This document shows, one piece after another, positions 4,501 to 23,474 of a stretch of 64,000 nt of DNA. The notes under the pieces were generated by a model. That model worked only from the letters and a program-made list of their open reading frames with translations. It did not search any database and was not told the DNA's origin. Origin of the DNA: Ignavibacteria bacterium (lineage in GTDB: Bacteria > Elusimicrobiota > Endomicrobiia > PHAN01). Within the stretch, counting starts at the first letter, position 1; each line of letters opens with the position of its first letter. The DNA is taken from positions 52,266 to 116,265 of the forward strand of contig JBGFRZ010000082.1 of assembly GCA_041694835.1 (NCBI GenBank), given 5' to 3'. The position numbers were made by a program, and so were the translations under genes.

Positions 4501-5168
4501 ATATTCTCCACAACGCTTTTTGGCGAAAAATTGCTTGCGGTTGAATACCAAAGGATGTAACTCGTTATACTGTCGCCGTAGATATTGTCTGTGCCGACAG
4601 GAAATCCACCGGCATTTGTCACATCGCCCCATGCCAGAAAGACCAATGAAGAAAAAACAACTGTTGTCGGGGTTCCTGTGTAGTTGTAGCCACTTACATT
4701 CCCAGGTGAGTTGTTCTGAGTCGCCGACTGGGGCTCAGGACTTGAAGTGTCAAGCAGCGACCAGTTGATGTTGTCCGTCGAAGATTTTATCGCAAAAAAA
4801 TATGTTATATTATTTACAAGAGATGAAACGACTCTCATCTCCGAGTTGCTGGAAGAAGTTGAAGTCGAAAATTTTATCCTGTAGGGGTAAGAAATCGATG
4901 TGGAGTTGTTTGTCCAGTCGGCTTCTGCGACTATTACCCGGTAACTCGAAACTCTTACCTCGTACCATTGAGGCGCTCCTTCCGGCCCACCTGGAGCTGT
5001 CCATTGAAGGGTTATGTGTCTGAAGCCGCTTGATCTTATTGAGAGATCGGTGACCTGATTTGGAACAGCGTTCAGGGTCGTTAATCCAAATAAAAAAAGT
5101 ATCGTCGGCCAAAAAAAACGAACGGGGCGAAACTTATCGATATCCGACAGTTTTGTCCGATGTTTCAT
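1530..5168 (-). CDS. large secreted surface protein (1212 aa): signal peptide, >=8 Fn3/Ig-like ~100-aa repeats, C-terminal T9SS type-B sorting domain (gliding-motility-associated CTD)
   Basis: Recurring repeat motifs PTLxWxxxxDPDxDxxxYxxxxSTxxxF appear throughout. The last ~85 aa, FTPNGDGINDEFNVTF...WNGK...GVYIYQLKVGDKIKNGTVVVAR, match the TIGR04131-type FxPNGDGxND CTD. The N-terminus has a hydrophobic signal-like segment. Confidence 0.6.
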   Translation of the reverse strand: MKHRTKLSDIDKFRPVRFFWPTILFLFGLTTLNAVPNQVTDLSIRSSGFRHITLQWTAPGGPEGAPQWYEVRVSSYRVIVAEADWTNNSTSISYPYRIKFSTSTSSSNSEMRVVSSLVNNITYFFAIKSSTDNINWSLLDTSSPEPQSATQNNSPGNVSGYNYTGTPTTVVFSSLVFLAWGDVTNAGGFPVGTDNIYGDSITSYILWYSTASNFSPKSVVENITQTNWTTPALNENTTYYWRVYARDSEGLLSLGVTGTPQFVVNATSESPTAFSLIQPINDTIETGTLQPTLWWNASSDPDPADFVVYNVYISTSISFESNVSTRVSGINQLSWSPWWNLTENARYFWKVHARDTTGRETVSSSTGSFRLNTVNEPPQPFSLLWPTGGTMIFTSSPTLRWSIAIDLDPGNTVYYGISYSSTTATPAPPVIFDILTTYYQLIDLQEDAVYWWRVVARSSPDNLTTQSEISSFTVKAVNFPPGSFNLLASSGIIRTQTLSLSWQSAIDPDGDTVTYSIFYSSVSNFSIFVSSVGISSPPFSVTTSLNENTTYWWYVIAIDSFNAMTHSSTWFFIVDATSENPKAFSLLSPLDGSFYSYLKPTLLWQETTDPDPYDYVYYYTLTYSTNSLFAIKTQISPIYITSYTFQSDLSNNTTYYWYVTAHSTLTGSTDTLSRSFIAVNLPPNPFVPVSPSGIISTRTPTLIWSPSSDPESDTFWYDVHYSSYENFNVFVSSVGITTTSYITLELKENGTYWWRAVACDIWGNQRWSSVLSFKVNSIEENPSAFSLLSPANGAIIETLMPNFSWSSSFDPDPEDFVVYELWHSTSPDFSSRKVVSNIASLSYQVPLDKTLLVDSTYYWRVYAVDKTSRSTPTTDWSFYTNPSARPLPPTNFKFDIPNTKDIVLSWTAPIKNTDGSSPGNLAGFRVYVAHRFDDLFTSNHVAFVPASSSTLTLALVSDVNIYYMVRAINTLGVLGEPSAVLVAGEPNQNIHHSENGKFQIVAEPEILRPDYSVKITKKENPPDDQKTKLSYMVEIMDREGALIKTGFKKPLTLKFQLENLTASSPAVSKTPSEVASYAVFWFNGVEWVNLGGRYLGAYLIADARYSGEFRVRSLQRAVEFKILNAWPKVFTPNGDGINDEFNVTFENPFSESVTGEIFDLSGYKVAEMEKKSDLWVVWNGKEQSGGALPTGVYIYQLKVGDKIKNGTVVVAR

Positions 5169-5716
5169 ATCTTTATATGTGTGTAATTAAGCCATCTTAT
5201 GATTTTTGAGAATACGCTCTTTTTCTCATTCCTCACAATCTTGAGTGATGTGAGTTTAAGGTTTAATCTTCTTATCTCGTCCTCATACTGCTTGAGAGTA
5301 TTTTTATGGCCGCTTATTGCGACCGATTGAGTATCGATAATATCTTCTTTTTTGTGCAGCACAAGCAAGAAATCTTTTCGCCAGTTTGCGAATTCTTTCG
5401 CCTGAACGGAAATCTTCGCCAACTCGTTTTTCAGAGTTTCTATCTCGTCGCGAAGTTTTTCGTTTTCTTCCCTTATGCTGTTTTTCTCATCCTCAAGAAG
5501 TTGCATTTTTTGATTGCCATCCTCCGCCATCCGAGATAAAATCTCATTCTTTTTGTTTAAATCAGATCTCAGTCTTGTGATTTCGCTCATATACAGATTG
5601 TTTTTCTCTCTGAACAAAGATGATTCTGGCATTTCACCACGACAACCGAATTCATCCTCGAGGCGCTCTATCTTTTTAAGAAGCTCTGAAACTTTAGTTG
5701 CTCTTTGGCTTGCCAT
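5165..5716 (-). CDS. coiled-coil protein (183 aa), E/K/L-rich heptads
   Basis: Track ORF. It overlaps the downstream gene by 4 bp (ATGA) and the upstream gene by ~23 bp, suggesting translational coupling within the operon. Confidence 0.4.
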   Translation of the reverse strand: MASQRATKVSELLKKIERLEDEFGCRGEMPESSLFREKNNLYMSEITRLRSDLNKKNEILSRMAEDGNQKMQLLEDEKNSIREENEKLRDEIETLKNELAKISVQAKEFANWRKDFLLVLHKKEDIIDTQSVAISGHKNTLKQYEDEIRRLNLKLTSLKIVRNEKKSVFSKIIRWLNYTHIKI

Positions 5717-8700
5717 CGTTTCTCCTTATCTTGATTATGGGTTCGTTCAGGTTTTCCCAGAACTTCTTAAACGACGATGCCTTCTTTCCTTCTGAAAACT
5801 CTCCCTCGCCCTCTTTATCGACAAATTTCCTAATCGCCTTCTTGAGTTCATTTATTTCCTCGTCCTTAATTGAGATTTCAATCTCACGGGCTTTGTATTT
5901 TTTTGTTATTTCATCTATAATTTCTTTCAGCTCAAATACATCCGAGGTTGCGATTTTGGTCGCTGAATTTTTCAGATTTTCATAAGCGTCCGATATCTCT
6001 CTCTTCTGAGATTCCATCTCCTCAATTTTTCCGCGATACTCGCTATTTAAAAGCGATATATTTTTCTCGAGGTTCTCCGCTCTCGCTTTTAGTACCGCTC
6101 TTTCCTCTTCTTTCGCCTTTAACTCGGAATCTTTCAAAGACAGTTCTTCCTGTGCGGTCTTTATTGAGTGCTCCATTTCGGCTCTTATTTCACTTAACTC
6201 TGAATTCAGGGCGGATTTCATCTGCGATTTTTCTTTTAAAAGGGTTTCAATCTGATTTCTGTATTTCTCCTCCATCTCCCTTTGAATTTCCAATTCCTTC
6301 CGCCTGTAGTCGAGATGAAGCCTCTCGATTTCTCCCTCTTTCGAAATGATATCGGCTTTAAGTCTGTCTTTTTCATCGTACCACTTTGTGAGCATCTGCT
6401 CATAATTTTTTTTAGACTCTTCGACCTCTTTCCTAAGACGTTCGAACTCAAAGGCATTTTCCATCTCCACTTCCCTTCTCACTTCAAGCTCCATCTGCTT
6501 CCATTCGGCATTCATATTTCTTATCTGGTTTTCTTTTAGAACAATATCCTGTTTGATGTTGTTTGCTTCTTTTTGAGCCGATGAAATCTCCTCTCTGAGT
6601 TTAACGGTTTCTATCTGATAGTTCTTCTTCTCTAATTCAAGAGAAGTGATTTTTCTTTCAATCTCGCCTTTCTCAATCCTAGAATTATTCAGAATCTCCT
6701 GCTCTTTCATCAACTGCTCGGCGAGCTTTCTGTTTAACTCTTCCTTCTGTCTGGCGAATTCATTTTGGACTTCCCTGATTCTTGCGTCGGCATCTTTTTC
6801 TCTGAGTAAAATCGCGTGATTCAGATCGGACACCGCTTTTCTTGCATGTTCAAGCTCAAAACGAATGTGCTCCGCCTCTTTTGAGAGCGCATTACAGCGC
6901 GACTCTTCCTTTGAAAAACTCTCTATCAGACGATGAATTTCCCCGTTAAGCTCCGATATTTTGCTTTCATATCCGCCGATAGTTTTTGATTTTTCCCTCT
7001 CAAATTCTTTTGCAAGGTTTGCGACTTCTCTTTCCGCATCTCGCTGAATATTTACAACATCATTCCTGAGCGACGTGATTTTGGCCTCACTTTCGCTCGT
7101 CAACCTTGATATAGTCTCCTGATAATTCTTTTCAATTTCCTTTATCCTGACTTCGGCCTCCCTCTCTTTTAGCTCGATAGCGTGATTGCTCTCCGCTATC
7201 TTATGACTTGCGTTATCGAGCTCAAAAGTTATCGATGCGATTTTCTGCGAGTATGAATCGTTTTTAGATGATAACTCGACTATATGACTTCTAGAGTCGG
7301 TCAGATCTTTCTCCATGATTTTTTTGTCCTGTTCCAACCGCAAACTCCTCATTTCAAACTCTTTCATTCGCGCCGCGTACTGTTGCATCTGATTTTCATA
7401 TAAAGAGTCACTTCTCTGTGCGTCCTGTCTCAGGATAGAAATTTTCTGCTCATACTCCGCTTCTTTCTGTTCAAGCCTCTGCAACCATTGGGCTTCGGCG
7501 ATTCCGAGTTGAGCTTCCTTTGAGCTAAGTTTTGAGTCGTATTCGGCCGAAAGGGTTCTCAATTTTTCTTCGTAATGCCTTTTAATGTTTTCGAGTTCGG
7601 TTTCCTTCAAACGGACGGCGCTATTAAAATCTCTTTCGTGATCGGCGAAATATACCTTCAGAGATTTTATCTCCTCTTCCTTCTTTTGTATCTCAAAACC
7701 AGATTCCTGGATTTTTTTGTTAAGCTGTTCCTTGTAAAATAATATCTCCCTGAGAAGTTTGTCCTGTTCTGTTTTAGTCTTCCCCTGGAAAAGCGCAAAC
7801 TGCGTCTTCAGGAGAAAATACTCCTTCTCTTTCGCTTCGGCACATTTGACGAGTTCGTTTTTCTCGGTTCTCATCTTTTCAATAAGATGGACGAGCTTCT
7901 CGCCCTTTTCTTTCTGCTCCCTTAATTGAACCGAAGACATTGCAATCTGCGCCTTTATCGCAAGAAACTCTCTATCTCTTTCTTCAAGTTGTTTCAGGAG
8001 AATATTTTTTTCTTCCTGATTTTTTGCGACAGATTCCTTCAAGTCCCTCAAAGCGGCGTCTCTGTCGGATTCCATCCTTGAAATCCTGTTTTCAAAGTCG
8101 TCTTTTTGTTCAAGCAGATTTTTCTCGAATGCAAGCTTCAGTTTCGAGAGCTCTTCTTCTTTATTTCTCAGAGATGTGGACCATCCAAGTTTTTCTTCGT
8201 GCCATTTTCTCTCGAGATCTTTTATCTTCAGGGAAAACTGTTCTTCAATCTCTGTCTCCTGGAAGTCCCTCTGCTGCATCTGTGTCTTTAACGTCTGAAC
8301 CCATGTTTCTCTCTCTTGAGAGAGTCTTTCCTCAAGTTCTTTTATCTTCGATTCGGCTTTCGCTTTCGCTTCCTCTATTTCCTGCTCTCTTTTTTCCCGC
8401 CTGAGGCGTTCTTGAATGTCTTTTATAGATTCCTCGACTTTGGAGGCCATCGCTTCTTCTTCCTTAGACTTCATCATCTGTAAGAGAAGTTTTTCCCTTT
8501 CCTGCTGAAGTTGATTCTGAAGTTCTATTATCTGCTGTTGAAGTTTGGTGGCGGACGCGTCGGAGGCGGGGGTGTCCAAGATGGGCAGATGCTGTGCGGG
8601 CGGCTTCAGAGGCAGCCCGGTCCTTTTGGGGAGTACGGGCGAGCCCGAAGATGGTTTCGGGGGCAGCGGTAGATTTGGTTTTCCTCCTGCGTGTTGACCT

Positions 8701-8741
8701 TTCGATGGCAAAGGCGGAAGTTTGGGTTTTTTATCTTCCAT
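5694..8741 (-). CDS. giant coiled-coil protein (1015 aa) with proline-rich N-terminus (PKLPPLPSKG...PLPPKPSSG)
   Basis: Track ORF. The protein is an almost continuous E/K/L/Q heptad coiled coil. It overlaps the upstream 1616-aa gene by 11 bp. Confidence 0.5.
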   Translation of the reverse strand: MEDKKPKLPPLPSKGQHAGGKPNLPLPPKPSSGSPVLPKRTGLPLKPPAQHLPILDTPASDASATKLQQQIIELQNQLQQEREKLLLQMMKSKEEEAMASKVEESIKDIQERLRREKREQEIEEAKAKAESKIKELEERLSQERETWVQTLKTQMQQRDFQETEIEEQFSLKIKDLERKWHEEKLGWSTSLRNKEEELSKLKLAFEKNLLEQKDDFENRISRMESDRDAALRDLKESVAKNQEEKNILLKQLEERDREFLAIKAQIAMSSVQLREQKEKGEKLVHLIEKMRTEKNELVKCAEAKEKEYFLLKTQFALFQGKTKTEQDKLLREILFYKEQLNKKIQESGFEIQKKEEEIKSLKVYFADHERDFNSAVRLKETELENIKRHYEEKLRTLSAEYDSKLSSKEAQLGIAEAQWLQRLEQKEAEYEQKISILRQDAQRSDSLYENQMQQYAARMKEFEMRSLRLEQDKKIMEKDLTDSRSHIVELSSKNDSYSQKIASITFELDNASHKIAESNHAIELKEREAEVRIKEIEKNYQETISRLTSESEAKITSLRNDVVNIQRDAEREVANLAKEFEREKSKTIGGYESKISELNGEIHRLIESFSKEESRCNALSKEAEHIRFELEHARKAVSDLNHAILLREKDADARIREVQNEFARQKEELNRKLAEQLMKEQEILNNSRIEKGEIERKITSLELEKKNYQIETVKLREEISSAQKEANNIKQDIVLKENQIRNMNAEWKQMELEVRREVEMENAFEFERLRKEVEESKKNYEQMLTKWYDEKDRLKADIISKEGEIERLHLDYRRKELEIQREMEEKYRNQIETLLKEKSQMKSALNSELSEIRAEMEHSIKTAQEELSLKDSELKAKEEERAVLKARAENLEKNISLLNSEYRGKIEEMESQKREISDAYENLKNSATKIATSDVFELKEIIDEITKKYKAREIEISIKDEEINELKKAIRKFVDKEGEGEFSEGKKASSFKKFWENLNEPIIKIRRNDGKPKSN

Positions 8742-11700
8742 TTTTCCCTCCTGATTTGTTATTTATCTTGTTTGTTAATTCCTTCTCAAAGCTAATCAGA
8801 TTCTCGTTTTTAGGTTCTATGGATATCGCCTTTTTTATCGCCATAAGAGCGTCATCCAGTTTGTCTGTGTTATAAAAGCATAAGGACATATACTGCTGTG
8901 CTTCCGCGCTGGATGGATTATTCCGAGTGAACTCCCTCAGTATTTCCAAAGACTCGGAGTAACTGCCTTGTTCGCAAAGTTCTACGGCTCTTTTCAAAAG
9001 CATCGGTCTGACTTCTTTTGGTGTCTGTCCATAAGAAACCATCTTTCCCATAAAGTCGTCGGCGAATTTCTTAAGATTTTCCCTCATCTCCCGTCGACGA
9101 ATGCTTTCTGCCATTATTTCTTTTGTAGTCATTTGCATACCGGCCTCGAGCACATCGAGTTGATTCATCTTAAGTTCAAGCAGTTTTGTGAATCTATCTT
9201 TTTCCGACATTATAGAGTTTTCAAGTTCTGATATTTCCCGAACCATAGAGATAAGTTCGGTGTTTTTATCCTCATAAAGCTTTAACTGAGCGGATATCTC
9301 CGGAGAATCCTTCATATAAGAGGCTCCCGCATCCGCAAGCTCTTTTCTTAAATTCTCTATGGCTTGAGATGAGAGTTTATGCTGCGACTTATTCTTATCG
9401 ATTGTCTCTTCCAGAACTCCTTTTAGTTCATCAATATATTTTTGGAGCTCTTCTCCGCGCTTTTTTGTTTCATTTTGCAGACGCTCATTTCTCAACTCAA
9501 GTCGTTTTGAGAGGGTGGTTATCTTTTCTTCTTCCATATAGATTTTGTTTTTAGACTCTGACAAATAATCGTTGTATTTCCTGAGAAGTTCCGTCAAATC
9601 TTTTTCGAGCTTTTTCAAGAGGTTCTTGCTTTTTTTCTCATGCCTCAATCGCGCAGTCTCGAACTCGGACTTCGAAAGTGCCACTTTGAGTTTTCTGGAT
9701 TCTATTTCCTTTTCAATCTCTCCGATTATCTTTGCCGAAGAGTTCTCGCTTTCTTTCAACTTACTTTCCCAAAGATTCACTTCGGCGAGGAGCGTTTCTC
9801 TCTCTTTAAGAAGCTTCGCTTCCTGAAGGACCCATTCGGATTCGAGGCGATTTTTTTCATCGTCATATTTTGCCTCTAGTTCTCTTTGCGTTTTTATTTT
9901 CCCGGAAATCGTTTCCCCGGTTTCCTTCTTTAACTTTTCCATTTCAGACGACAACTTTTCCATCTCTCGCTCGATCTTTTCTTTCTCGGCGAGGTGTTCT
10001 TTCGTTATTCGTTGCTCTTCGTCGGTCACATAGGATTCCCATGTTGTTATTTTGTTTCCGAGCTCTTTCATCTCTTCTTCTTTTTGCGATTTTAAATTGC
10101 TCCAGTAATCGCCTTGCTCTCTGATAGTCTTTTGAAGAGTTGATATCTGCTCTTCAAGTCTTTTATTCGTATCAGTCCAGGTTGTCTCTTTATTCTTTAG
10201 TTCATTTTTTGTCTGTTCAAGAGATGCCTGTGATTTATTGATGAACGCATTCAGCTCGCTCGTCTTGGAGCAAAGCGCGGTTTTGCCCGCATTCTGAACT
10301 TCCAAAAAGTTGTTTTGGAGCATCGTCAGTTCTTCGGCCAGAACTTTTCTCTCGTTTTCATAATTTTCGTTTTGCTTTTTTTCCTCCTCGTGCCATGATT
10401 TTTCTCTTAAAGCCATCTGCGTCTTCAGGACATAAAGTTGCCTGTCCAGAATCCTTACTTCATCGCGATTCGTTCCGACTAGAGCTTTTAGCTTATGTTC
10501 TAACTCATCCCTCTTCCTATCAAGCGAATGTTTCTCGGCGGCATAATTCTGTGATGAGTTTTCAAACTTTGTTTTCATTTCATCTTCCAATACTTTTAGA
10601 TTCTGCTGTCCAACTTTCAGTTTTTCTTCAACTTCGGATAACTCTTGCTCCTGCTTGATTTTTATGGCTTTCATCTGGTTTTCAAGATTTTCTTTCCTTT
10701 TTTCAATTCTTTTGACGAACTGCTCATGCGATTGAAAATATGAATCTCTATTTTTTGTGTAATTATCCTCCTGTTCCTTCAATTTCGCATTTAGTTCCTG
10801 AATCTGCTGCTGCCTTGTGGCAACCATCCCCGGATGTTTTTCTTCCAACTGCGCAAGTTCCATTTCATTCGATGTAATTTTGGAAATCAGCAGTTCTTTG
10901 ACTTTATTAAACTCGCTTTCCATATGATTCAACCTGGCTTTATACTCCTGTTCAAACCTCAAGTGGTCCGACTTAAGCTTTTCAATTTCACGCTTTTTCT
11001 CCGCCAGCAACTCCGCATGGCGGGATTTCATCTCTTCCGATTCATTTTCAATCTTTTCTATTTCCTCATTTATGAGCTTTTTTTCATTTTCATTTTCTAA
11101 CTCAAGAATTTTTATTTCTTTTTCATATTTGTGAATGTTGGTTTCACGAGATGCGTTTAAAAAAGTTATCTTGTTATCGAACTCTATTAAGATATCAGCA
11201 TGTTTTTTTCTTGTTTCATCAAGTTTTTTTGAAGATTCTTCGAGTTTTTTTCTGACCAACTCAAGCTCCGCGCTTATTATGCTCTCCTTTTCTTCTATCT
11301 CATATTTATTTGCCGAAATTAAATCATTCACTTTTTTACTTATCGCTTGTATATGTCTTTCGGACTCCGAAATTTCACTTTCGCATTTTTCTTTAAAAAA
11401 ATTAAACCCGACTTTCGTCCTTTCAAGCGACTCTATCGCTATCTTCTTCTTGCCTTCAAGTTCAAAGCGGGTGGCGTCCAAATTTTTTTGTAACACCGCT
11501 GTCTTTTCCAAAAGAACTTTTTCTAACTGATTGTTCTCATCGTTTTTCGCGCTTACGGTCTCATCAAATCTCTTTTGTTCTGAAATCACCACACTATTCA
11601 ATTCCTCTATTTTAGCCTCAATACTTCCTTTTTCTTCTTTTAGTTTTACATTAAAACTTTCAAGCGCAAGAGAATGATTTTTCTTTTCATCTTCCATCTT

Positions 11701-13581
11701 TTGCATCAAAGACTGATGGACATTTTCAAGTTCCTTCATGTTTTTTGAATGTTCTTTTTCAAGCGATATTTTTTGAGAGTCAATCTCGTCTATGTCGGCC
11801 TTTATTGAATCGATTTCGGCCGAGAGTTTATCGACTGACTGATGGTATCTACTTTCAAGCATATTTTCCTGATGGGCAAAACGTTGCTTCAAACTTAAAT
11901 AATCTCTTTCCTTTTCTGCCATCTTCTGCTTAAAATCCATCTCAAGACGCGCTTTTTTACTTTCAGCGACCTTCAGCTTTTCTTTATAAGGTTCAACTTC
12001 CACAAAAAGTTTCTTTTTAGCGTTCTCAAAAGACCTGGTGCTTTCCAAAAGTTCCGCTTCCACTGAATTTTTTGCGGCTTCAACCTGGGATTTCTTTTGA
12101 GAAAGAAGTGAAGAGTACTCCGTCTTTATTTTCGAAAAATCTTCCTGGAACTTTTGATATTTATCCTCGATGAGTTTTTTCTCCTCGGAAAGAATTTCAA
12201 TTTGATGTTTATGTTGAAGATTCTTCTGTTCCTGGTTCGATTGCCAATCGTTTTTGAACTTTTCCATCTCTTCGTACTTTCCGGAGAGTTCACTTTGATA
12301 TTCTATTTTCTGGTTCAAAACTTCTTTTTCAAGATCAGTACATCTCAAAGAGATTCTCTTTTTTTCATTTTCAATATTTGTTTTGTATTTTTCTATTTCT
12401 GCGTTTTTCTCCCTTATCTTTATTTGAGCCTGGATTTTAATGTCTTCTATATCCTGATCCGCGACTCTTATCATATTCTCCCATTCGGATTTTTCCTGCT
12501 CATATTTCTGATGAAGCTCCTTGAGCTGTTTTTCAGCCAGAGATTTTGCCTCTTTGAACTCGTTGAAACGTTTTTCGCGAGCGGAACTTTCCTGCGTTTC
12601 CTGAAGCATCATGTCAATTTTTAGTTTATTGAAAGCATCTTCCCTCTCTTTCAATAGTTTCTCGTATTTCTCCTTTTCGGAAAGCGACTCCCTTTCCATC
12701 TCACTCATCTGAGCCACTAACTTTTCTTTTAAATCCTTAAGCAATATCTTTTTCGCATTCAGTTCCTGCTCATATATTATCTGACGCTGTTTCAAAGCCG
12801 AGCTGAATGCAAGCAATCCCTCTTTTTTATCGTTATAAATTTTCTGGAAGTTTGCTCTCATTTCGGAAAGATTTTTTTCAACACCATTCAACTGATTATT
12901 GTAATTGCCTTCTAATTCTTTTTTCTCCCGATGAAATTTTTCCTCTTCCTGCCGGGACTGGTTGACTCTGAGGGATATCTGTGCTTTTAATGCCACGATT
13001 TCCTCTTCCCTGCCTTTCAGTCTTGTTACAAATTCCCCTATTTCCTGCTGTGCTTTTTTCTCGAAGGCAAGAAGCTGACTTTCTATCTCTCTTAATTCCT
13101 GAGTGGATGAAATTATCTCTTTTTCATCTTCGGCTTTTTTTTCGTTTTCCCTGGTTTGCAAATTTACTTTTGTTTCGTCTATCTCGGTTATGATAGCTCT
13201 GATTTTTTGACCCCACTCTTTATCCTCTTCTTCTATCTTGCGCTCAACCCTTTGCAGTTCGTCATTCCATTTTTTTCTAAGCGAATTTATCGAGTCCTGA
13301 TGAAGTTGCATGTTGTTTGAAAGTTCGAGTTCAACAAGTTCAAGATGGATGGAAAGTTTTATTTTTTCATCTTCTTTCTCTTTTTCTTTCTTCCTGTAAT
13401 TTTCCCGCTCAACTTCGAGCATCTTTTCTATGTTTTCAAGTTGCTCACGCGCCGTTTTTTTTATGCTTTGTAAATCATGGCTGGCGGTAAGCTCTATCTT
13501 TTTCTCGTCGCACTCAATATCCGATGTCGCTTTTTTTTCGGCGACTGGTTCCTCTTTGTGTTTGATTAGCCACTTCCACAT
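8731..13581 (-). CDS. giant coiled-coil protein (1616 aa) with C-terminal TPR-like repeats
   Basis: Track ORF. It reads as ~1500 aa of SMC/myosin-tail-like coiled coil followed by LEILREFTRNNPSSAEAQQYMSLCFYNTDKLDDALMAIKKAISIEPKN (TPR). Confidence 0.5.
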   Translation of the reverse strand: MWKWLIKHKEEPVAEKKATSDIECDEKKIELTASHDLQSIKKTAREQLENIEKMLEVERENYRKKEKEKEDEKIKLSIHLELVELELSNNMQLHQDSINSLRKKWNDELQRVERKIEEEDKEWGQKIRAIITEIDETKVNLQTRENEKKAEDEKEIISSTQELREIESQLLAFEKKAQQEIGEFVTRLKGREEEIVALKAQISLRVNQSRQEEEKFHREKKELEGNYNNQLNGVEKNLSEMRANFQKIYNDKKEGLLAFSSALKQRQIIYEQELNAKKILLKDLKEKLVAQMSEMERESLSEKEKYEKLLKEREDAFNKLKIDMMLQETQESSAREKRFNEFKEAKSLAEKQLKELHQKYEQEKSEWENMIRVADQDIEDIKIQAQIKIREKNAEIEKYKTNIENEKKRISLRCTDLEKEVLNQKIEYQSELSGKYEEMEKFKNDWQSNQEQKNLQHKHQIEILSEEKKLIEDKYQKFQEDFSKIKTEYSSLLSQKKSQVEAAKNSVEAELLESTRSFENAKKKLFVEVEPYKEKLKVAESKKARLEMDFKQKMAEKERDYLSLKQRFAHQENMLESRYHQSVDKLSAEIDSIKADIDEIDSQKISLEKEHSKNMKELENVHQSLMQKMEDEKKNHSLALESFNVKLKEEKGSIEAKIEELNSVVISEQKRFDETVSAKNDENNQLEKVLLEKTAVLQKNLDATRFELEGKKKIAIESLERTKVGFNFFKEKCESEISESERHIQAISKKVNDLISANKYEIEEKESIISAELELVRKKLEESSKKLDETRKKHADILIEFDNKITFLNASRETNIHKYEKEIKILELENENEKKLINEEIEKIENESEEMKSRHAELLAEKKREIEKLKSDHLRFEQEYKARLNHMESEFNKVKELLISKITSNEMELAQLEEKHPGMVATRQQQIQELNAKLKEQEDNYTKNRDSYFQSHEQFVKRIEKRKENLENQMKAIKIKQEQELSEVEEKLKVGQQNLKVLEDEMKTKFENSSQNYAAEKHSLDRKRDELEHKLKALVGTNRDEVRILDRQLYVLKTQMALREKSWHEEEKKQNENYENERKVLAEELTMLQNNFLEVQNAGKTALCSKTSELNAFINKSQASLEQTKNELKNKETTWTDTNKRLEEQISTLQKTIREQGDYWSNLKSQKEEEMKELGNKITTWESYVTDEEQRITKEHLAEKEKIEREMEKLSSEMEKLKKETGETISGKIKTQRELEAKYDDEKNRLESEWVLQEAKLLKERETLLAEVNLWESKLKESENSSAKIIGEIEKEIESRKLKVALSKSEFETARLRHEKKSKNLLKKLEKDLTELLRKYNDYLSESKNKIYMEEEKITTLSKRLELRNERLQNETKKRGEELQKYIDELKGVLEETIDKNKSQHKLSSQAIENLRKELADAGASYMKDSPEISAQLKLYEDKNTELISMVREISELENSIMSEKDRFTKLLELKMNQLDVLEAGMQMTTKEIMAESIRRREMRENLKKFADDFMGKMVSYGQTPKEVRPMLLKRAVELCEQGSYSESLEILREFTRNNPSSAEAQQYMSLCFYNTDKLDDALMAIKKAISIEPKNENLISFEKELTNKINNKSGGKNGR

Positions 13582-13596
13582 ATTATTCCTCCGCTT

Positions 13597-15411
13597 TTAT
13601 TTTCTTGATGCCTCGAGTTTTATCTGTTCAATAAAGTTTGACAGCTCCGTGTCATTTGGGTTTATGTTTAACACCGCTTCATAATTTGCAATCGCTTCGT
13701 CATATCTTCCGAGAGCATAATATGAAGCGGCAATATAACTGTAGGCGTCGGTCAAAGTGTTGTCGATTGAAAGGACGTACTCAAGATAGCTTATGGCATC
13801 CTCATAGTTTCCCGCTTCATAACTGGAGAGTCCTGCCTGATAGTAATCCGCAGCGTCACCTTCCGAAGGAGCGGCTTCTTCGTCAACAACCTCTTCACCC
13901 TCAAGAGCGCTGCTTTTCGGCTTTTCTCTTATAAAGATTTTACCGTCATCTTCAAGTTTTCTTATGACATCCATTATTTTCTTTCTTCCTTCTTCTGTCT
14001 GTAACGGCGTTACGGATTGGGTGTACTGCATTTCTTCTTGAATAAGTTGGACCGCGTTAGACGACATGTTGGCAAAAAACTTATTTACCACATCCTGAGG
14101 CACTCCTTTGAGTGAGCGGGCAAGAAGTTCCGAATTTTTCAAATCTGGAAAGTTAAGTATTGTCTGCATCGTCTGATCCGTGAAGTTCTTAATGTCATCA
14201 AACTTCAATATAAACTTTCTGACCCTGTCGTAGAGTTCCGGTTTTTCGTTCTGTAGATAATCCAGTATGTTGTCCCTTGTTACGTTGTCAACCTGATCAA
14301 GCACTTTCAAAAGATGCTCTATGCCGCCTATTAGGAAGTCTATCTTTTCTTTTATGTCGTCGTCTATCTTCATTACCTTATCCCTCGTCATCTGTCTTAT
14401 GGTCGCCATCTCTATGGCCACCTGCGACTGAACCTGCGCCGAAAGGCTGAGAAGTATCTCTTTGACATGCTCGGGTTTAAGATAACTTATTACGAGAGCT
14501 ATTATTCTTGCGCTTTCTTTCCTTATTAAATATATAAGTCTTTTAAGATTTTCGTCATCTACATAGTGAAACGGTTTGTACTTTTTTTTCTCCTCTTCCA
14601 GCGCTTCAAGCTCAGCCGCAGAAAGAGCGCCGCCTCCGCCTCCTCCTTCACCGCCTTCTGGCTCCCCCTCGGGGTTTTCGAATTTTGAATCCACGGTAAC
14701 TTCTGTTCCGCCCTTTTCCCTCATCGTTTTTACATATGCACGGAAAAAGCCAGCAAGAGGACCGAAAAGAAAAAATAAAAGAAGAAATGCTATAACAAGA
14801 GGTATCAAAACAAGCGGCTTCAGCAGCTCTTCAAAAAATCCCGTCGTGAATTTTGTTTTCTTAAAATCTATCCGGTCACCGCGCTTTTGATCTATTCTGA
14901 GAGCGGAAGTAATAGCATCTTTTACGGCTTCAAGTTTCGACTCGGGAACTTTTTCATCGTGCAAAACAGTCACTATCTGTTTTTTCAGAGCAATTTTGAC
15001 CTCGACAGTTATTTTTTCCTGCTGGCCGGCCTCTTCTTTCGATTCGCCGACTTGATCCGCTTGAGAAACCGCTCTGGGCGCCGGAACACCCGGCAGCAGA
15101 TACTCCACCTCGCCTATCGGCTTCTTTTTTTCGGCCTTTCTTTCCCTGACGAAGGTTTTTCTGGTTATCGTATCAAGACCGAATTCGACATCGACTATGG
15201 CTATCGCTTTATCCGGTCCAAGTATCCTGTCAAGGATGTCTTTCTGAACGTACTCCGTCTTTTCTTTTTCGTACTTGAGTTCATGTTCTATCAGTGAGAT
15301 TTCCGCAGACTGCGGGGTCATCTGTCCATAAAGATAAACAAAAGAAGAAAGAGCCAGTAAAAGTGCCACCGCGCTTTGTTTCAAATTTTTAAGCTGTTTT
15401 AATTTTTTCAT
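13597..15411 (-). CDS. membrane protein fusing FliF/YscJ-like periplasmic ring-building motif, TM helix, FliG-like middle+C-terminal domains and C-terminal TPR repeats (604 aa)
   Basis: N-terminal signal/TM anchor MKKLKQLKNLKQSAVALLLALSSF. The periplasmic segments AIAIVDVEFGLDTITRKTFVRERK and ITVEVKIALKKQIVTVLHDEKVPESKLEAVKDAITSALRIDQKRGDRIDF resemble FliF ring-building regions (compare SARVHLAMPKPSLFVREQK and VTVTLEPG...VVHLVSSAVAGL). A second TM helix is PLVLIPLVIAFLLLFFLFGPLAGFF, followed by a Gly-rich linker. Then ESARIIALVISYLKPEHVKEILLSLSAQVQSQVAIEMATI ... DIKNFTDQTMQTILNFPDLKNSELLARSLKGVPQDVVNKFFANMSSNAVQLIQEEMQY..EEGRKKIMDVIRKLEDDGKIFI follows the FliG/MgtE-N fold pattern. TPR repeats lie at the C-terminus. 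Confidence 0.5.
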   Translation of the reverse strand: MKKLKQLKNLKQSAVALLLALSSFVYLYGQMTPQSAEISLIEHELKYEKEKTEYVQKDILDRILGPDKAIAIVDVEFGLDTITRKTFVRERKAEKKKPIGEVEYLLPGVPAPRAVSQADQVGESKEEAGQQEKITVEVKIALKKQIVTVLHDEKVPESKLEAVKDAITSALRIDQKRGDRIDFKKTKFTTGFFEELLKPLVLIPLVIAFLLLFFLFGPLAGFFRAYVKTMREKGGTEVTVDSKFENPEGEPEGGEGGGGGGALSAAELEALEEEKKKYKPFHYVDDENLKRLIYLIRKESARIIALVISYLKPEHVKEILLSLSAQVQSQVAIEMATIRQMTRDKVMKIDDDIKEKIDFLIGGIEHLLKVLDQVDNVTRDNILDYLQNEKPELYDRVRKFILKFDDIKNFTDQTMQTILNFPDLKNSELLARSLKGVPQDVVNKFFANMSSNAVQLIQEEMQYTQSVTPLQTEEGRKKIMDVIRKLEDDGKIFIREKPKSSALEGEEVVDEEAAPSEGDAADYYQAGLSSYEAGNYEDAISYLEYVLSIDNTLTDAYSYIAASYYALGRYDEAIANYEAVLNINPNDTELSNFIEQIKLEASRK

Positions 15412-15422: not shown

Positions 15423-17057
15423 TTATCTAAGTTGGTTCAGGAACTGCGGAACCACTCTGTTTGTTGGATCTATTTCGAGCACCCGCATCCAGACCTCTTT
15501 TGCTTTTTCCGGCTGATCCATCATAAAGAAAGCGCTTCCCATAATTTCGTAAGCTGTCACATGGTTCGGTTCAAGATTCAGCACTTCCTGGGCTTTAATA
15601 AGGGCTTTGTCATATTTGCCGTCTATTATGGCTTGTCTTGCGTCGAAGATCTTCTGATCTATTATAGTAAATCCTGCGATTGTTTCCTTGAATGCTTCCG
15701 TAGGCGGGATGCCCATTTCTTTTTCAATCCTGTTCAACAAAGCAAGTAGCTTCATGTTCTCGGGTTTTTTGTAATAAGCATATCTGAAAGAGTTTATGGC
15801 GCCCGTGTCGTCGCCTTCTATATATGCTACAATCCCTTTTCTTGTCGCTACGGCATCTTCAGTATCTCCTACCACAGTGTCTATGTGACCTATTATTACC
15901 TGTAGTTTTTTGGACATATTCTGTGCATCTTTATTGGCCGGGTCTATATCAAGAAGTTTTTCAAGTCGATTGTGGGAAAGAAGCATGTCTCCTTTTCTGT
16001 AGGATTCTATAGCTTCTTTCATAAGACGCACCACTATAGCCGCTCTGTTAGCGCTTACCGATTCCCCTATTTTCCACGAACCGGATATTCTATGTGAAAG
16101 TCCGAGCTCATGCAAAGCAAACGCATAATCAAGCCCGTAATCTTTATATTTGAAACCAAAACCAGCGGTTGTCTCTCTTATTCTACCTTCGCCCTCGAAT
16201 CCGAGACGCATGGCAAGATAATTCATAAGCCAGTATTCTGTCCCTATGTGCCAGCCGAGATTTGCGTTAAGCGATTTTTCAATATCAAACGCCAGTAAAA
16301 ACTTTTTTTTCATAAACGGATGGGCCGCGCCGACTCTGAATATCATAGGAAGTTTGTCTTCCGTATCGCCAAAGCTCGTAGAAATTATGTTCCTGACACC
16401 GAAAGCAATTTTTATATCGGGCAACGTGTCATTTACTCCTTCAAGGAGCAGCGCAAGATCGAATGTTAGGGCTCCGCTTATAGAATCGGCCAGAGCATGG
16501 TTCATGTACTTCCCAGAAAGACCTATGGAGAGATTTTCTCTTATTCTTCTGCCGTATGCTGCCATTAAAGCCAGACGGGAATCTTCAAATGTGCCTAAAT
16601 TTTCAATCTTAACTATGTCCTGTGTAGTTGGGTCTATGTTTATCGCTATTTTTTCAAAACCGCCCGAGTGGAGACGGACGATGTTTGCTCCGAAAACTCC
16701 CAACTTTGCGGTTGGATGCACATACGACAGAAAGTTATAGTTGGTATCGGCAAAAAGCGTGGCATGGAGAGCCATAACTTCTTTCCTGTCAAGCTGGGTC
16801 AGAGCTGCCGGATTCCAGTAAGTAGCGGAGGCATCGTCGGAAACCGCGAAAAACGCTTTTCCCATACCAAGTGATTTAGCGCCAGCACCCCATGAAAGGA
16901 ACTGCCCAGGCTGGCCGCCGGTGGCAGCGGCAAAGACAGAGGATAGCGGCGAGAGACAAGAGACGAGAGAACAAATAAAAACAAAAGCCATCCCTGACAA
17001 AGTTTTTGCGACTTTGTTCGCTAGTTTTGTCGAGAGTTTTGTTTTTGAATTTTTCAT
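15423..17057 (-). CDS. FadL/OmpP1/PorV-like outer-membrane beta-barrel with C-terminal TPR domain (544 aa)
   Basis: A signal peptide is followed by GAKSLGMGKAFFAVSDDASATYWNPAAL, the FadL-family N-terminal signature. The body is beta-strand-rich. The C-terminal ~200 aa are TPR repeats. Confidence 0.55.
   Translation of the reverse strand: MKNSKTKLSTKLANKVAKTLSGMAFVFICSLVSCLSPLSSVFAAATGGQPGQFLSWGAGAKSLGMGKAFFAVSDDASATYWNPAALTQLDRKEVMALHATLFADTNYNFLSYVHPTAKLGVFGANIVRLHSGGFEKIAINIDPTTQDIVKIENLGTFEDSRLALMAAYGRRIRENLSIGLSGKYMNHALADSISGALTFDLALLLEGVNDTLPDIKIAFGVRNIISTSFGDTEDKLPMIFRVGAAHPFMKKKFLLAFDIEKSLNANLGWHIGTEYWLMNYLAMRLGFEGEGRIRETTAGFGFKYKDYGLDYAFALHELGLSHRISGSWKIGESVSANRAAIVVRLMKEAIESYRKGDMLLSHNRLEKLLDIDPANKDAQNMSKKLQVIIGHIDTVVGDTEDAVATRKGIVAYIEGDDTGAINSFRYAYYKKPENMKLLALLNRIEKEMGIPPTEAFKETIAGFTIIDQKIFDARQAIIDGKYDKALIKAQEVLNLEPNHVTAYEIMGSAFFMMDQPEKAKEVWMRVLEIDPTNRVVPQFLNQLR
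16911..16991. repeat. pyrimidine/purine-skewed low-complexity tract (ggcagcggcaaagacagaggatagcggcgagagacaagagacgagagaacaaa) encoding the signal-peptide h-region MAFVFICSLVSCLSPLSSVFAAATGG
   Basis: Direct reading of the DNA and its minus-strand translation. Confidence 0.55.
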
Positions 17058-17093: not shown

Positions 17094-17462
17094 TTAATGT
17101 ATGACTCCAATTTTTCTTAAAGCCACTATCTTCCCGCCATCGACGGAAACCACACAGATATATCCGCCCTTGGCGACGTAATGACCGTTTTCGTCGCGAC
17201 CGTCCCACAGGATTGTATCTCCAAAAAATTCGAGATGCTTGACGGGGCGGCCAAAAAGATCGAAAATTTTTACCGCAATTCCAACGTCGGTCTGATTTGA
17301 TTTTTTTACAAGGATGCTTGTGGAAGTTTTTCTCGAATCGAACGGATTGGGATAGTTTGAAAGAAATATGTCAGAAGATGATGCGACGGATGCCGTCAAC
17401 AAAAGAATTGATGAGGCGAAAGGGATAAGTAAAAGATAATTTAAAAAGTTGATGTGCTTCAT
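17094..17462 (-). CDS. small secreted protein consisting of a signal peptide plus T9SS type-A C-terminal sorting domain (FlgD-Ig-like CTD) only (122 aa)
   Basis: LSNYPNPFDS...VKIFDLFGRPV..L....ILWDGRDENGHYVAKGGYICVV...KIVALRKIGVIH matches the TIGR04183/PF13860 CTD pattern. It is the first gene of the operon. Confidence 0.5.
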   Translation of the reverse strand: MKHINFLNYLLLIPFASSILLLTASVASSSDIFLSNYPNPFDSRKTSTSILVKKSNQTDVGIAVKIFDLFGRPVKHLEFFGDTILWDGRDENGHYVAKGGYICVVSVDGGKIVALRKIGVIH

Positions 17463-17971
17463 AAATTGCCTTCGGTAACCCGGCCGCCATAATCTCGCAT
17501 TTTGCTTGATGTTAGGCCCGTATCCTGACCTATAGTCAGAATGACCCGATTCAACATCGGGATCGGCTTTGCGTCCTCCGGTTTCCCGGAGTTTGCCATT
17601 TATCGGACAATCCTTACGTTTCCATCTCCGCCACGGCGGAAGGGGGCTATCAAAATAAAAATGCTACCGAACTTCCGCCCGGTAGCATAAAGATAGGGGG
17701 TCCTAAAACTTGTTGCAAACCACTACAACCGCAACCGCTAACAAATTAAACTTACTACACCTTCTCTCGGTAGCCCGGCCAGCTCCCCCGACATTATGTC
17801 GGGGGCATCGCTCCGATTTCCCGAAACGATTTTGATAGCCCCCTATCTTTAGCTCCGCGGCTTTGCGTCCTCCGGTTTCCCGAAGTTTGCCTTTATCGCA
17901 ATATATATATAATAAAATTTATGACATTTGTCAAGGTTTTTTTAACAGCCGAAATTCTGCCAAAAATTGCA
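17463..17971. other. structured 510-bp non-coding leader/element: two 41-bp direct repeats (17565-17605, 17859-17899) flanking ~250 bp with perfect hairpins and a 15-bp inverted repeat
   Basis: The direct repeat ggctttgcgtcctccggtttcccg(g/a)agtttgcc(a)tttatcg occurs twice. gggggctatcaaaat at 17641 pairs with attttgatagccccc at 17826. The hairpin cccccgacattatgtcggggg has a 9-bp stem and gctaccgaacttccgcccggtagc a 7-bp stem. No ORF >=60 aa lies in this region. Confidence 0.5.
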
Positions 17972-22469: not shown

Positions 22470-23474
22470 CTAAACAGATAGTAATTTTAATTGATGAATA
22501 TGTTGATACCGATAATGATTACGTTTAATCAAAGAATGCTTTTTTTCAATGTCAACTTCTTTCAATCTTCGAATAGCAATTTTTACATATTCACTATTAG
22601 AATCAATTCCAATGTATTTCTTTTCTAATATCTTGGCAGCGACTGTCGTGGTAGCGCTCCCAACAAAAGGGTCTAATATAATGGCATTTTTAGAAAAAGC
22701 CGATAACTGAATCAAATATTCACAGATCGCTAATGGTTTCACTGTTTTATGTAGATTATAATCTCCTTTTTCTTTCTTTGATGGTTTGGGCAACAGGAAC
22801 ACTTTATCAATCTCAGTGTTTATGTTTTCAGTGGTAATTACATTTGCTGGATACATATTTTTACCCAATCTAATATTCGTATTTACCAAACCAACTTTGT
22901 ATTTCAACATGTTGTTTAGATAAGTAGTGTCTGTCGGTTTTTGCGCCACAGCAATAGGTTCAAAACAAGATTTAATCTGCGGGGTCTTCCATCCGTGCAA
23001 TCTTTCTCTAATAATATTTTTTTGGTCATTGCCAGCTCCCATCTTATCAATAAAATGATTAAGCCCCATTGCCTTTGCCTGATTTTGAGTATAGAGCCAC
23101 ATGAAAACATCTCTGATCTCAAATCCCGCATCGTCCAATGCTGATGCCATTCTATGATATAGGCGAGGACTAGAAAATGAAAAGAAAAATCCACCGGGTT
23201 TCAATAATCTGATAATTTCCTTTGATATTTTTAAATACCAACTATAAAATCTGACGCCTTGTTCTCTCTCAAATTTCATTCCAGCTGGCAATGACTTTAT
23301 GATGTAGTGATTGCGTGTATTAGTTACTACTTCATGATTCCATTGGTTGTCCAGTTTATCTAAAAAATACGGGGGGTCAGTTATAACAAGATCTATTGAA
23401 TTGCTTTCAATTTGCGGAAGCACGTTTAATGCATTATCACATATAATTTTATTCAAAAATTTTTTGTTTTTCAT
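22470..23474 (-). CDS. DNA methyltransferase, N6-adenine/N4-cytosine (PF01555-type, DPPY motif)
   Basis: LVITDPPYF is motif IV. ILDPFVGSATTTVAAKILEKKYIGIDSNSEYVKIAIRRL is the C-terminal AdoMet motif I. The gene is visibly AT-richer than its flanks. Confidence 0.8.
   Translation of the reverse strand: MKNKKFLNKIICDNALNVLPQIESNSIDLVITDPPYFLDKLDNQWNHEVVTNTRNHYIIKSLPAGMKFEREQGVRFYSWYLKISKEIIRLLKPGGFFFSFSSPRLYHRMASALDDAGFEIRDVFMWLYTQNQAKAMGLNHFIDKMGAGNDQKNIIRERLHGWKTPQIKSCFEPIAVAQKPTDTTYLNNMLKYKVGLVNTNIRLGKNMYPANVITTENINTEIDKVFLLPKPSKKEKGDYNLHKTVKPLAICEYLIQLSAFSKNAIILDPFVGSATTTVAAKILEKKYIGIDSNSEYVKIAIRRLKEVDIEKKHSLIKRNHYRYQHIHQLKLLSV

Follow-up and report, generated by a model that had tools for sequence, protein, structure and literature searches.

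A FliF-FliG-TPR fusion protein in a conserved non-flagellar gene cluster of Elusimicrobiota and its possible role as a stator-driven rotor

Domains of the fusion protein

The 64,000-nucleotide stretch of DNA analysed here (the window) spans positions 52,266 to 116,265 of contig JBGFRZ010000082.1 in assembly GCA_041694835.1, deposited as an Ignavibacteria bacterium and placed by GTDB in the phylum Elusimicrobiota (Endomicrobiia, PHAN01). At 13597..15411 it contains a gene with an ATG start codon whose product of 604 amino acids (aa), examined through the list of open reading frames (ORFs) and by profile, structure and fold searches, is a fusion of the third ring-building motif (RBM3) of FliF, the middle (M) and C-terminal (C) domains of FliG, and a tetratricopeptide repeat (TPR) domain. 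This gene lies on the minus strand, as do the other features of its cluster and leader. The first-pass annotation of the window had described the same ORF as a ring-building motif joined to FliG-like domains and TPRs, a repurposed rotor or ring module in a non-flagellar context, and that description has held: the ORF is real, its domains stand, and the fusion belongs to a fixed non-flagellar gene cluster found across the phylum. From the N-terminus, the protein consists of a signal or anchor segment, the FliF RBM3/S-ring domain, a transmembrane (TM) helix, a Gly-rich linker, FliG-M, FliG-C and approximately 2.5 TPRs. A model of the 604-aa protein built by AlphaFold2 (AF2) from 34 homologues, with a mean predicted local distance difference test score (pLDDT) of 77.6, begins with an N-terminal helix, after which come an alpha-beta-beta-alpha-beta domain (two of its strands ~19 residues long, and one loop disordered), the TM helix and a disordered linker; the FliG-like part that follows is wholly helical, and five TPR helices close the model. 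Comparison of this model with the PDB by Foldseek places FliG structures at ranks 1-13 (1.3e-11 to 4.4e-7), followed by FliF RBM3 rings (2e-4) and then by TPR proteins. Sequence, profile and fold searches are concordant on all three domain assignments (RBM3, FliG-MC and TPR).

The periplasmic domain (residues 34-196, 14824..15312) has the alpha-beta-beta-alpha-beta order of an RBM3/S-ring domain, and its disordered loop is rich in Lys and Glu and carries an invariant LPGVPxP motif. The Pfam family PF08345 (YscJ_FliF_C) matches residues 60-188 with an E-value of 7.6e-5 (23.6 bits, cutoff 23.8). A profile of the region made from 26 homologues finds FliF (3.5e-4) and SpoIIIAG (1.4e-3) among the PDB sequences, as well as the FliF of Vibrio and of Salmonella, the latter two at the place of RBM3; FliF and SpoIIIAG had both been proposed for comparison in the first-pass annotation. 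An exhaustive search of 1.84 billion representative proteins with the periplasmic profile matched proteins of FliF length at residues 236-412 (E ~1e-12 to 1e-10), and Pfam, applied to one of these (P0319), found both PF01514 and PF08345, which marks it as a genuine FliF. In alignment the region is collinear with residues 225-450 of Escherichia coli FliF, with which it has in common the helix-1 motif RIQ..IL.PI.G, a GVP in the collar loop that is part of the LPGVPxP invariant in the family, and a KRGD ahead of the final strand. The periplasmic domain is thus confirmed as FliF RBM3/collar. Pfam gave no match to PF01514 (RBM1/2, YscJ/FliF) in the fusion at E <=1, and RBM1, RBM2 and the C-terminal FliG-binding tail of FliF are absent. 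Of the YscJ/FliF-like ring-building region claimed earlier, the FliF-type ring domain stands (as RBM3, PF08345) but the YscJ-like RBM1/2 part does not; the claim that the periplasmic part is short is borne out by its ~165 aa and the absence of RBM1/2.

The N-terminus and the cytoplasmic linker also differ from those of FliF. By hydropathy the N-terminal hydrophobic stretch comprises only ~16 residues, and so resembles a signal peptide more closely than the first TM segment of FliF. The single strong TM segment is at residues ~199-227 by hydropathy, within a predicted helical region of residues ~199-234 (14710..14817) with a Kyte-Doolittle peak of 2.81 in a 19-residue window and AF2 helices at 199-216 and 218-234. 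Of the signal/TM segment and the second TM segment that had been claimed, the second is strong and the first is more probably a signal peptide. The Gly-rich linker noticed earlier, ENPEGEPEGGEGGGGGG, is present after the TM segment; the whole cytoplasmic linker (residues 235-277, 14581..14709) is predicted to be a flexible Gly/Glu-rich segment, with pLDDT <50 over residues 235-263 and FliG alignments beginning at residue 278, and it takes the place of FliF's C-terminal tail and the N-terminal domain of FliG. At the other end of the protein, the TPR domain (residues 517-604, 13600..13863) forms five helices, or ~2.5 repeats, all modelled with pLDDT >90; it matches designed TPR proteins as well as Pfam TPR_1, TPR_2 and TPR_19 over residues 518-600, in agreement with the repeats first read there.

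FliG-M (residues 278-362, 14326..14580) ends in a Gly-Gly hinge and is followed by FliG-C (residues 364-497, 13921..14322). Pfam FliG_M (PF14841) matches residues 291-357 at 3.9e-13 (49.9 bits, cutoff 25) and FliG_C (PF01706) matches residues 385-494 at 2.2e-24 (86.2 bits, cutoff 23.3). The NCBIfam model TIGR00207 (fliG) matches residues 268-495 at 2.9e-33 over its positions 99-329 only, scoring 115.6 bits, well short of its cutoff (226.7). Among solved structures the closest is Thermotoga maritima FliG-MC (1lkv), which aligns with residues 278-495 at E=2.7e-30 and ~30% identity and was used to delimit FliG-M; Foldseek matches FliG-C to 1qc7 with a TM-score of 0.93 and to 1lkv at 1.3e-11. With both Pfam families above their cutoffs and FliG at the head of the fold search, the FliG-like domains proposed from the ORF translation are secure. 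A separate FliG-N is absent, as PF14842 (FliG_N) matches only once, at residues 304-387 (28.3 bits, cutoff 25), within the span of the M and C domains.

Residue conservation was assessed in an alignment of E. coli FliG, whose numbering is used below, with 65 non-redundant members of the family. The Gly-Gly hinge is kept in 64/65 members, including the window protein. The EHPQ motif that begins at E125 has become (E/D)(E/D)PW in the family and E-S-A-R in the window protein, and R160 is replaced by E in 62/65, the window protein among them, so that the FliM-binding EHPQR signature is gone. The proline of the former EHPQ persists in 64/65 members and is replaced, by alanine, in the window protein only (residue 301, codon 14509-14511). 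The equivalent of the torque helix is at residues 448-463 (14023..14070), NMSSNAVQLIQEEMQY, where the residue corresponding to D288 is E459; this position is E in 64/65 members. The position of D289 is S, I or E in the family, with E in the window clade (defined as the window and its five nearest relatives, loci L001 and L005-L008, at 52-71% identity) and E460 in the window protein. The K264 equivalent is mostly Q or A, with K/R in the window clade only (K435 in the window protein); the R281 equivalent is G in 58/65 members and N in the window clade (N452); and R297 corresponds to T or S (T468). The torque-helix pattern claimed for the window protein is therefore right in outline, with charges at the positions of D288, D289 and K264, but wrong at R281 and R297. 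At the level of the family, the D288 equivalent is kept while the other four positions vary, so that one acidic position of the torque helix appears to be the only one that is truly conserved.

Gene order, stators and surface proteins across the phylum

Approximately 108 full-length homologues share the architecture of the window protein, and their taxonomic labels are all Elusimicrobia, Endomicrobiales or unclassified. A locus scan of one genome per species, with an alignment of 8 sequences as the query, yielded 70 non-redundant Elusimicrobiota loci, and outside Elusimicrobiota it found only ordinary FliG proteins of ~340 aa. The Elusimicrobiaceae loci among them (L034, L043 and L065) suggest that relatives of Elusimicrobium have the cluster, and a complete genome that carries it is CP096137.1. 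Across members down to ~30% identity, 15 residues are invariant. Gene neighbourhoods were compared by jackhmmer over all ORFs of the loci, with seeds from the window and two divergent loci. The general order is a giant secreted protein, a PorV/PorQ-like barrel with TPRs, the fusion, a coiled-coil protein of ~750 aa, FlbD, MotA, MotB and a lipoprotein-like protein of 230 aa. The PorV-like gene is upstream of the fusion in all loci that have room for it (52/52 outside the window clade and 6/6 within), the coiled-coil gene is downstream in 67/70, and the FlbD-MotA-MotB genes follow in 43/43 of the loci outside the window clade whose sequence extends at least 4.5 kb downstream; the giant secreted protein is upstream in 22/46 loci with room. 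The coiled-coil protein is fused at its C-terminus to FlbD in several lineages (in L003, for example, Pfam FlbD is at residues 705-761), which links it to the stator genes. The protein that always follows MotB, of ~230-250 aa (L003 16274-16981 and ~42 other loci), has a Cys after a hydrophobic segment in the manner of a lipoprotein signal, ends in DDLFKGFGFGQ, is absent from the window clade together with the stators, and has no match in Pfam or NCBIfam.

The flanks of the ~70 loci contain no flagellar gene besides the fusion and FlbD-MotA-MotB: no export gate, rod, hook, filament or FliM/FliN. The absence of other flagellar genes from the window, an earlier claim, was upheld by Pfam searches of essentially all of its ORFs of at least 110 aa over the 64 kb, which also gave no MotA/ExbB/TolQ gene. 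The first-pass annotation had further proposed a search for MotAB, ExbBD and TolQR paralogues near the fusion; MotA-MotB lie there in the 43/43 loci mentioned above, but were not found in the window or within 10 kb of the fusion in the six window-clade loci. A preprint on magnetotactic Elusimicrobiota reports free-living members without structural flagellar genes that nevertheless carry motAB, flbD and fliG, the role of which it calls "unclear", and predicts some Elusimicrobiota groups to be flagellated; another paper reports flagellar genes to be absent in Elusimicrobia. The preprint's remark is the sole earlier mention of these genes that was found. A search of the accessible literature gave no description in Elusimicrobiota of a FliF-FliG fusion, of its synteny with PorV, C-terminal domain (CTD) and coiled-coil proteins, of two paralogous systems or of riboswitch control.

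The stator proteins look functional and of the flagellar type, as judged by their residues and family matches. In 47 MotA sequences, position 90 is K in 46 and R in one, and E150, P173 and P222 are invariant (47/47); the E98 equivalent is Q in 30 and E in 15. MotB keeps D32 in 43/44 sequences, together with the OmpA-like peptidoglycan-binding motif, and Pfam MotB_plug was recorded. NCBIfam matches of the cluster MotA are exclusively to flagellar MotP, PomA and MotA models (1e-60 to 1e-78), all of them under the equivalog cutoffs. A basic residue at MotA position 90 accompanies an acidic residue at FliG position 288 in 42/42 loci that have both genes, and the second classical pair, MotA E98 with FliG R281, has decayed on both sides. 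Retention of the K/R90-E288 pair is what would be expected if a simplified but real contact between rotor and stator were maintained. Covariation among the variable residues of the MotA/FliG interface follows lineage and is uninformative. In loci of class UBA5214, two MotB paralogues stand in tandem in the cluster (L004 15680-17051), and the first has G in place of D32. A Zorya-type defence system was considered and rejected: PADLOC finds no ZorA for the cluster MotA and nothing for the fusion, PorV-like or coiled-coil proteins, and the MotB/ZorB similarity is generic.

The genes next to the fusion on its upstream side encode surface and outer-membrane proteins. In the window, the PorV/PorQ-family beta-barrel (15423..17057, 544 aa) has a C-terminal TPR extension (Pfam UPF0164 and TPR) and matches NCBIfam NF033709 at 140.5 bits (cutoff 90), while staying under the equivalog cutoffs for PorV (51.2 against 250), PorQ (53.3 against 220) and PorV2 (75.5 against 325). 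The adjacent 122-aa secreted protein (17094..17462) has an N-terminal hydrophobic segment and little else beyond a FlgD-Ig-like domain or CTD of the type IX secretion system (T9SS) kind, with 21.9 bits for TIGR04183 Por_Secre_tail (cutoff 23) and matches to PorU/PorZ C-termini; the same domain ends the giant proteins upstream in other loci. These giants reach 17,339 aa (L001 1-5490) and 14,454 aa (L004 1-7823) by gene calls and occur in more than 20 other loci, each of which holds the 3' part only. In their last ~940-1000 aa Pfam finds nothing except the FlgD-Ig/CTD-like domain at the C-terminus in L001, and the gene-call tables list none. At the far end of the window cluster are a 1212-aa secreted protein of Ig/fn3 repeats (1530..5168; Pfam Ig_Rha78A_N and fn3) that ends in a type B T9SS CTD (CHU_C, 45.1 bits, cutoff 27) and is conserved in L001, L005, L008 and L091, and a PorP/SprF-like outer-membrane protein with LysM (1..1511, the 3' end of the gene beyond the window), for which both Pfam matches are borderline (PorP_SprF 21.9 against 22.3, LysM 17.6 against 20.9). 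The CHU_C protein followed by the borderline PorP/SprF-like gene is found both in the window and in L091 (6371-11695). In Bacteroidota a type B cargo is paired with an adjoining SprF, as in SprB-SprF, and by analogy the CHU_C and PorP-like pair would mirror this arrangement, in a phylum where type IX secretion is not known. PorK/L/M/N and the Sov translocon do not appear in the loci, as far as a general reading of the clusters without a dedicated whole-genome search can tell.

The window lineage and its riboswitch leader

In the window, the eight cluster genes are spaced by -23 to +36 nucleotides (nt), and because of this spacing they very likely form one operon. Downstream of the fusion, the operon encodes cytoplasmic coiled-coil proteins and no stators. 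The one next to the fusion (8731..13581, 1616 aa) has no TM segment, a combined E+K+Q+R+L fraction of 0.53, a weak C-terminal TPR match at residues 1528-1592 and orthologues in 6/6 window-clade loci. The next (5694..8741, 1015 aa), also without a TM segment, has as its orthologue the coiled-coil protein of ~750 aa encoded ahead of FlbD-MotAB in other Elusimicrobiota, as judged by reciprocal jackhmmer matches to L4_800 (2e-155) and L3_779. Throughout the clade the two proteins have 1558-2103 aa and ~1000-1250 aa. A third, of 183 aa (5165..5716), was recognized as a coiled-coil protein from the ORF list and its composition, and its frame overlaps both neighbouring genes; it has no family match and no homologue in the other loci, and a gene of 251 aa occupies the same position in L091. 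The Ig/fn3 protein ending in CHU_C is present in 4/6 window-clade loci, and the other two end sooner.

Stators for the window lineage are presumably supplied in trans. The exhaustive RBM3 search revealed a second family of FliF(RBM3)-FliG(MC) fusions, of ~480-540 aa and without TPRs, several of which score above the PF08345 cutoff. In their neighbourhood, the fusion comes after a FecR-like or REC gene and is followed by MotA, a pair of MotB paralogues, a stand-alone TPR protein and a protein of 643 aa (L092 1699-6363; L093 8944-16646). Locus L093 (JAFGGC010000035.1), with the order FecR-like, 478-aa fusion (FliFG478), MotA, MotB, MotB and TPR protein, belongs to the same metagenome-assembled genome as the window-clade locus L007 (JAFGGC010000027.1). 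Window-clade genomes can thus encode flagellar-type stators, beside a paralogous rotor. In a MotA profile search for stators in the clade, the best 120 of 1448 matches are all of the Elusimicrobia type, with the standard cluster at the two loci looked up. The window PorP-like ORF gave three homologues, and the locus of one, L091, ends after a 694-aa gene with no stator. Upstream of the TPR-less fusion in L093 there is a protein of ~3000 aa with fn3 and CarboxypepD_reg domains. A 609-aa protein upstream of the main L008 cluster was considered as a rotor paralogue and rejected, being a PMT_2 glycosyltransferase-TPR protein that had been matched through its TPRs only. Another relative, P0309 (847 aa, from JGI/Logan, on a contig of 211,595 bp), has N-terminal HisKA and HATPase_c domains fused to FliF_C, FliG_M and FliG_C.

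The window operon is preceded by a 510-nt leader that contains two predicted riboswitch aptamers of the cyclic di-GMP (c-di-GMP) I class, whose covariance models belong to Rfam clan CL00126. Aptamer 1 (17765..17900) fits the c-di-GMP-I-GGC variant best (RF03167, 60 bits, gathering threshold 59, E=1.2e-11), and a sigma-70-like promoter match just upstream of it (17900..17927) is a weak pattern match only, with 9/12 positions of the consensus. Aptamer 2 (17471..17607; RF01051, 45.2 bits, gathering threshold 35) has its 3' end 9 nt before the start codon. Between the two lies a hairpin resembling an intrinsic terminator (17651..17688), with a 12-bp stem of which 6 pairs are GC, followed by TTTTATTTTG, and it is possible that this hairpin is the expression platform of aptamer 1. 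The 3' end of aptamer 2 is directly beside, and may overlap, a Shine-Dalgarno-like GAAGG, which suggests that aptamer 2 exerts translational control. A search for sigma-54 promoters gave matches no more frequent than chance. Tandem aptamers occur at the same position in the nearest relatives (L001 7372-7749, L005 487-947, L006 6971-7388, L007 7491-7816 and L008 7236-7629) and single ones before the PorV-like gene in L004 (8041-8136), L017, L022, L023, L047, L055 and L088, so that c-di-GMP-I-class aptamers are upstream of the cluster in 13/13 loci examined across deep clades, with scores of 43-92 bits in the relatives. As some aptamers fit the GGC variant model best, the ligands of the two aptamers may not be identical. 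Riboswitches for c-di-GMP typically govern motility, pili and adhesins.

Elsewhere in the window, the three adjacent genes at 36061-39893 on the minus strand encode a protein with GAF and HD_5 (HD-GYP-type) domains, a PilB-like ATPase (T2SSE) that carries MshEN, which is a known c-di-GMP-binding domain, and a GAF-GGDEF diguanylate cyclase; they appear to be a c-di-GMP module beside a pilus-type ATPase. Outside the cluster the window holds housekeeping genes and a dnaA-dnaN-gyrB origin region: at 43941-59746 on the plus strand are rnpA, yidD, yidC, jag, mnmE, rsmA, dnaA, dnaN, gyrB and gyrA, the gene strand switches near 43.4-43.9 kb, and both skews, GC and AT, reverse their sign at ~43-46 kb. 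Three N6/N4 DNA methyltransferase genes are present (22470-23474, 29028-30706 and 55468-56484), one adjoining a BsaWI-like restriction endonuclease gene and one inserted between gyrB and gyrA.

A possible rotary machine, its alternatives and its relatives

The fusion cluster is interpreted as the rotor-stator core of the flagellum rewired into a non-flagellar envelope system. That the fusion is a non-flagellar rotor driven by stators is considered rather probable, and any specific output is held with less confidence. The fuller proposal, of a distinct and undescribed rotary machine spanning the envelope, with a one-protein FliF-FliG rotor, MotAB/FlbD stators, a coiled-coil scaffold, PorV-like coupling to giant CTD adhesins and c-di-GMP control, is put forward tentatively, with the odds somewhat against it. 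From the observed domains and their conservation, the synteny, the stator residues, the charge pair and the riboswitches, we infer a ring, its rotation and an output as follows. RBM3 domains would self-assemble as a ring at the inner membrane, like the FliF ring of ~33-34 subunits, and display one FliG-MC per subunit, the fusion replacing the non-covalent joint of FliF tail and FliG-N and fixing a 1:1 ratio of FliF to FliG. Peptidoglycan-anchored stators of the MotA5B2 type would push the torque helix of FliG-C via the pair of MotA K90 and the FliG E288 equivalent, and the ring would turn or be cyclically strained. On the cytoplasmic side, the TPR domain and the coiled-coil scaffold would take the place of FliM/FliN and connect with FlbD and the stators. 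In the periplasm, work would pass to CTD-anchored surface proteins by way of the RBM3 collar loop, the lipoprotein and the PorV-like barrel's TPR arm. The most likely output would be either movement of giant CTD adhesins in a gliding-type manner, analogous to GldLM-SprB, or their export and anchoring, and c-di-GMP would set the timing of production of the machine.

Several observations weigh against this interpretation. For the periplasmic domain modelled by itself, AF2 reaches only moderate confidence (pLDDT 64.7), the PF08345 match of the window fusion falls just below its curated cutoff, and so do several of the CTD and PorP matches. Four of the five classical charge residues of FliG are not conserved across the family. 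FlbD, MotA and MotB were not found within 10 kb of the fusion in 6/6 window-clade loci, nor in the 64-kb window. The links of the ring to the PorV-like, coiled-coil and CTD proteins are drawn from gene order, and a ring that periplasmic partners fastened to peptidoglycan or the outer membrane could not rotate freely.

Alternatively, the cluster might encode a static inner-membrane platform for secretion and anchoring, a T9SS-like scaffold for CTD proteins in which MotAB would supply the proton motive force for export or attachment, as PorLM does in the T9SS, with no sustained rotation and no role in motility. The constant presence of a PorV/PorQ-family barrel and CTD-bearing proteins, the pairing of a type B CTD protein with a PorP-like gene in the window and the secreted proteins of 14,000-17,000 aa upstream in many loci all agree with such a platform. 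It is nonetheless judged unlikely, for the clusters show neither a translocon nor an ATPase nor a PorK/N/Sov-like gene, about half of the loci lack the giant CTD gene (it is present in 22/46), and the best-kept part of FliG is the domain that receives torque, kept along with its MotA K90-type partner, which would be hard to explain without a force contact. A ring and stator might instead act as a sensor of load or of surfaces that feeds c-di-GMP or two-component signalling, as the riboswitches before the cluster, the histidine kinase fused to FliF_C-FliG_M-FliG_C in P0309, the response-regulator or FecR-like genes beside some clusters and the GGDEF and HD-GYP-like proteins of the window might suggest. 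Yet a riboswitch puts the cluster downstream of c-di-GMP and not upstream, Pfam finds no signalling output domain in the 604-aa protein or its conserved neighbours, and the large structural investment (coiled-coil proteins of 1000-2100 aa, a barrel and giant surface proteins) suits a machine better, so that a signalling or mechanosensing device seems quite improbable.

Another alternative is a genuine though unusual flagellar motor, with the other flagellar genes elsewhere in the genome of a flagellated organism. Engineered FliF-FliG fusions do function in flagella (one has been solved, 8z4d), the stators are of the flagellar type, and there are the Elusimicrobiota groups predicted to be flagellated; against these stand the absence of FliG-N and of RBM1/2, which house the export gate, the replacement of EHPQR in 62-64 of 65 members, the ~70 flanks that hold PorV-like, CTD and coiled-coil genes and no flagellar gene, and the reported lack of structural flagellar genes in free-living Elusimicrobiota that have motAB, flbD and fliG. 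A flagellar motor is accordingly given very little credence. Less credible than this is a decaying relic of a lost flagellum without present function, a fate for which there is precedent, in that most flagellar parts are commonly lost in non-motile lineages and Chlamydiae retain a few flagellar genes. The reading frames are intact in ~70 species, residues are invariant among members at ~30% identity, synteny with non-flagellar partners is conserved, a TPR domain has been gained, and a dedicated riboswitch is conserved, all of which make decay scarcely believable.

To our knowledge, the FliG-MotAB rotor-stator couple has been described in flagella only. Should a system found across the phylum use FliG-MotAB with neither FliM/FliN nor an export gate, rod, hook or filament, the torque core would be a separable module that can be rewired to other outputs, and this would be the first natural flagellar rotor-stator couple to work with neither type III export apparatus nor axial structure. 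It could have arisen by exaptation or have survived from a stage before the flagellum, and would bear on the origin of the flagellar motor and the question of whether rotation and secretion were ever independent. A stator-driven rotor encoded by a single gene, with FliF and FliG at 1:1, would also be a minimal natural model; it would explain why Elusimicrobiota without flagella, among them magnetotactic members for which some form of motility is necessary, carry motAB, flbD and fliG, and would connect c-di-GMP riboswitches with surface machinery of a new class in a phylum that has been little studied.

Among known systems, the sporulation ring protein SpoIIIAG resembles the periplasmic domain less closely than FliF does, and has neither a cytoplasmic FliG part nor a stator. 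A natural FliF-FliG fusion of ~330 aa, with a shortened FliF, occurs in the Chlamydiaceae, which have no flagella (Bergeron 2016, PMC4768692); its FliF part retains an RBM2-like region but not the SpoIIIAG-like RBM3, and its FliG part is a FliG-M-like region only (PMC4768692). The Elusimicrobiota fusion, in contrast, keeps RBM3 only, has both FliG-M and FliG-C with the torque helix, and adds TPRs and a link to MotAB; Chlamydiae have an injectisome, and none was seen in the Elusimicrobiota loci. In the Agl-Glt system of Myxococcus, a MotAB/TolQR-like motor works with an envelope-spanning set that includes TPR proteins and outer-membrane barrels, and with an AglZ-like coiled-coil scaffold. The logic is that of the Elusimicrobiota cluster, but Agl-Glt is without FliF or FliG and no sequence homology with it was found beyond TPRs, the sole signal being a weak NCBIfam match to GltE (E=0.029).

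The T9SS is known from the Fibrobacteres-Chlorobi-Bacteroidetes (FCB) group, outside of which the Elusimicrobiota lie. By analogy, the T9SS and gliding machinery of Bacteroidota (GldLM/PorLM, PorV and SprB-SprF) is similar to the cluster described here in that a motor of the 5:2 type driven by the proton motive force is tied genetically to a PorV/PorQ-family barrel, to giant CTD proteins and to a pair of a type B CTD protein and a borderline PorP-like protein. It differs in that MotAB on a FliG ring would take the place of GldLM, in that no PorK/N or Sov gene was seen in the clusters, and in that the PorV-like protein of Elusimicrobiota fails the PorV, PorQ and PorV2 equivalogs and bears a TPR extension. 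The flagellar FliF/FliG/MotAB core is unlike the cluster in having export apparatus, rod, hook, filament, FliM and FliN in place of PorV-like, CTD and coiled-coil partners, and in being built from separate proteins, in contrast to a single polypeptide without RBM1/RBM2, FliG-N or EHPQR, to which TPRs have been added and in which one charge pair is kept. The likeness is that RBM3/collar is homologous in the two, FliG-MC is homologous together with its Gly-Gly hinge and torque helix, and in most members a flagellar-type FlbD-MotA-MotB set is adjacent.

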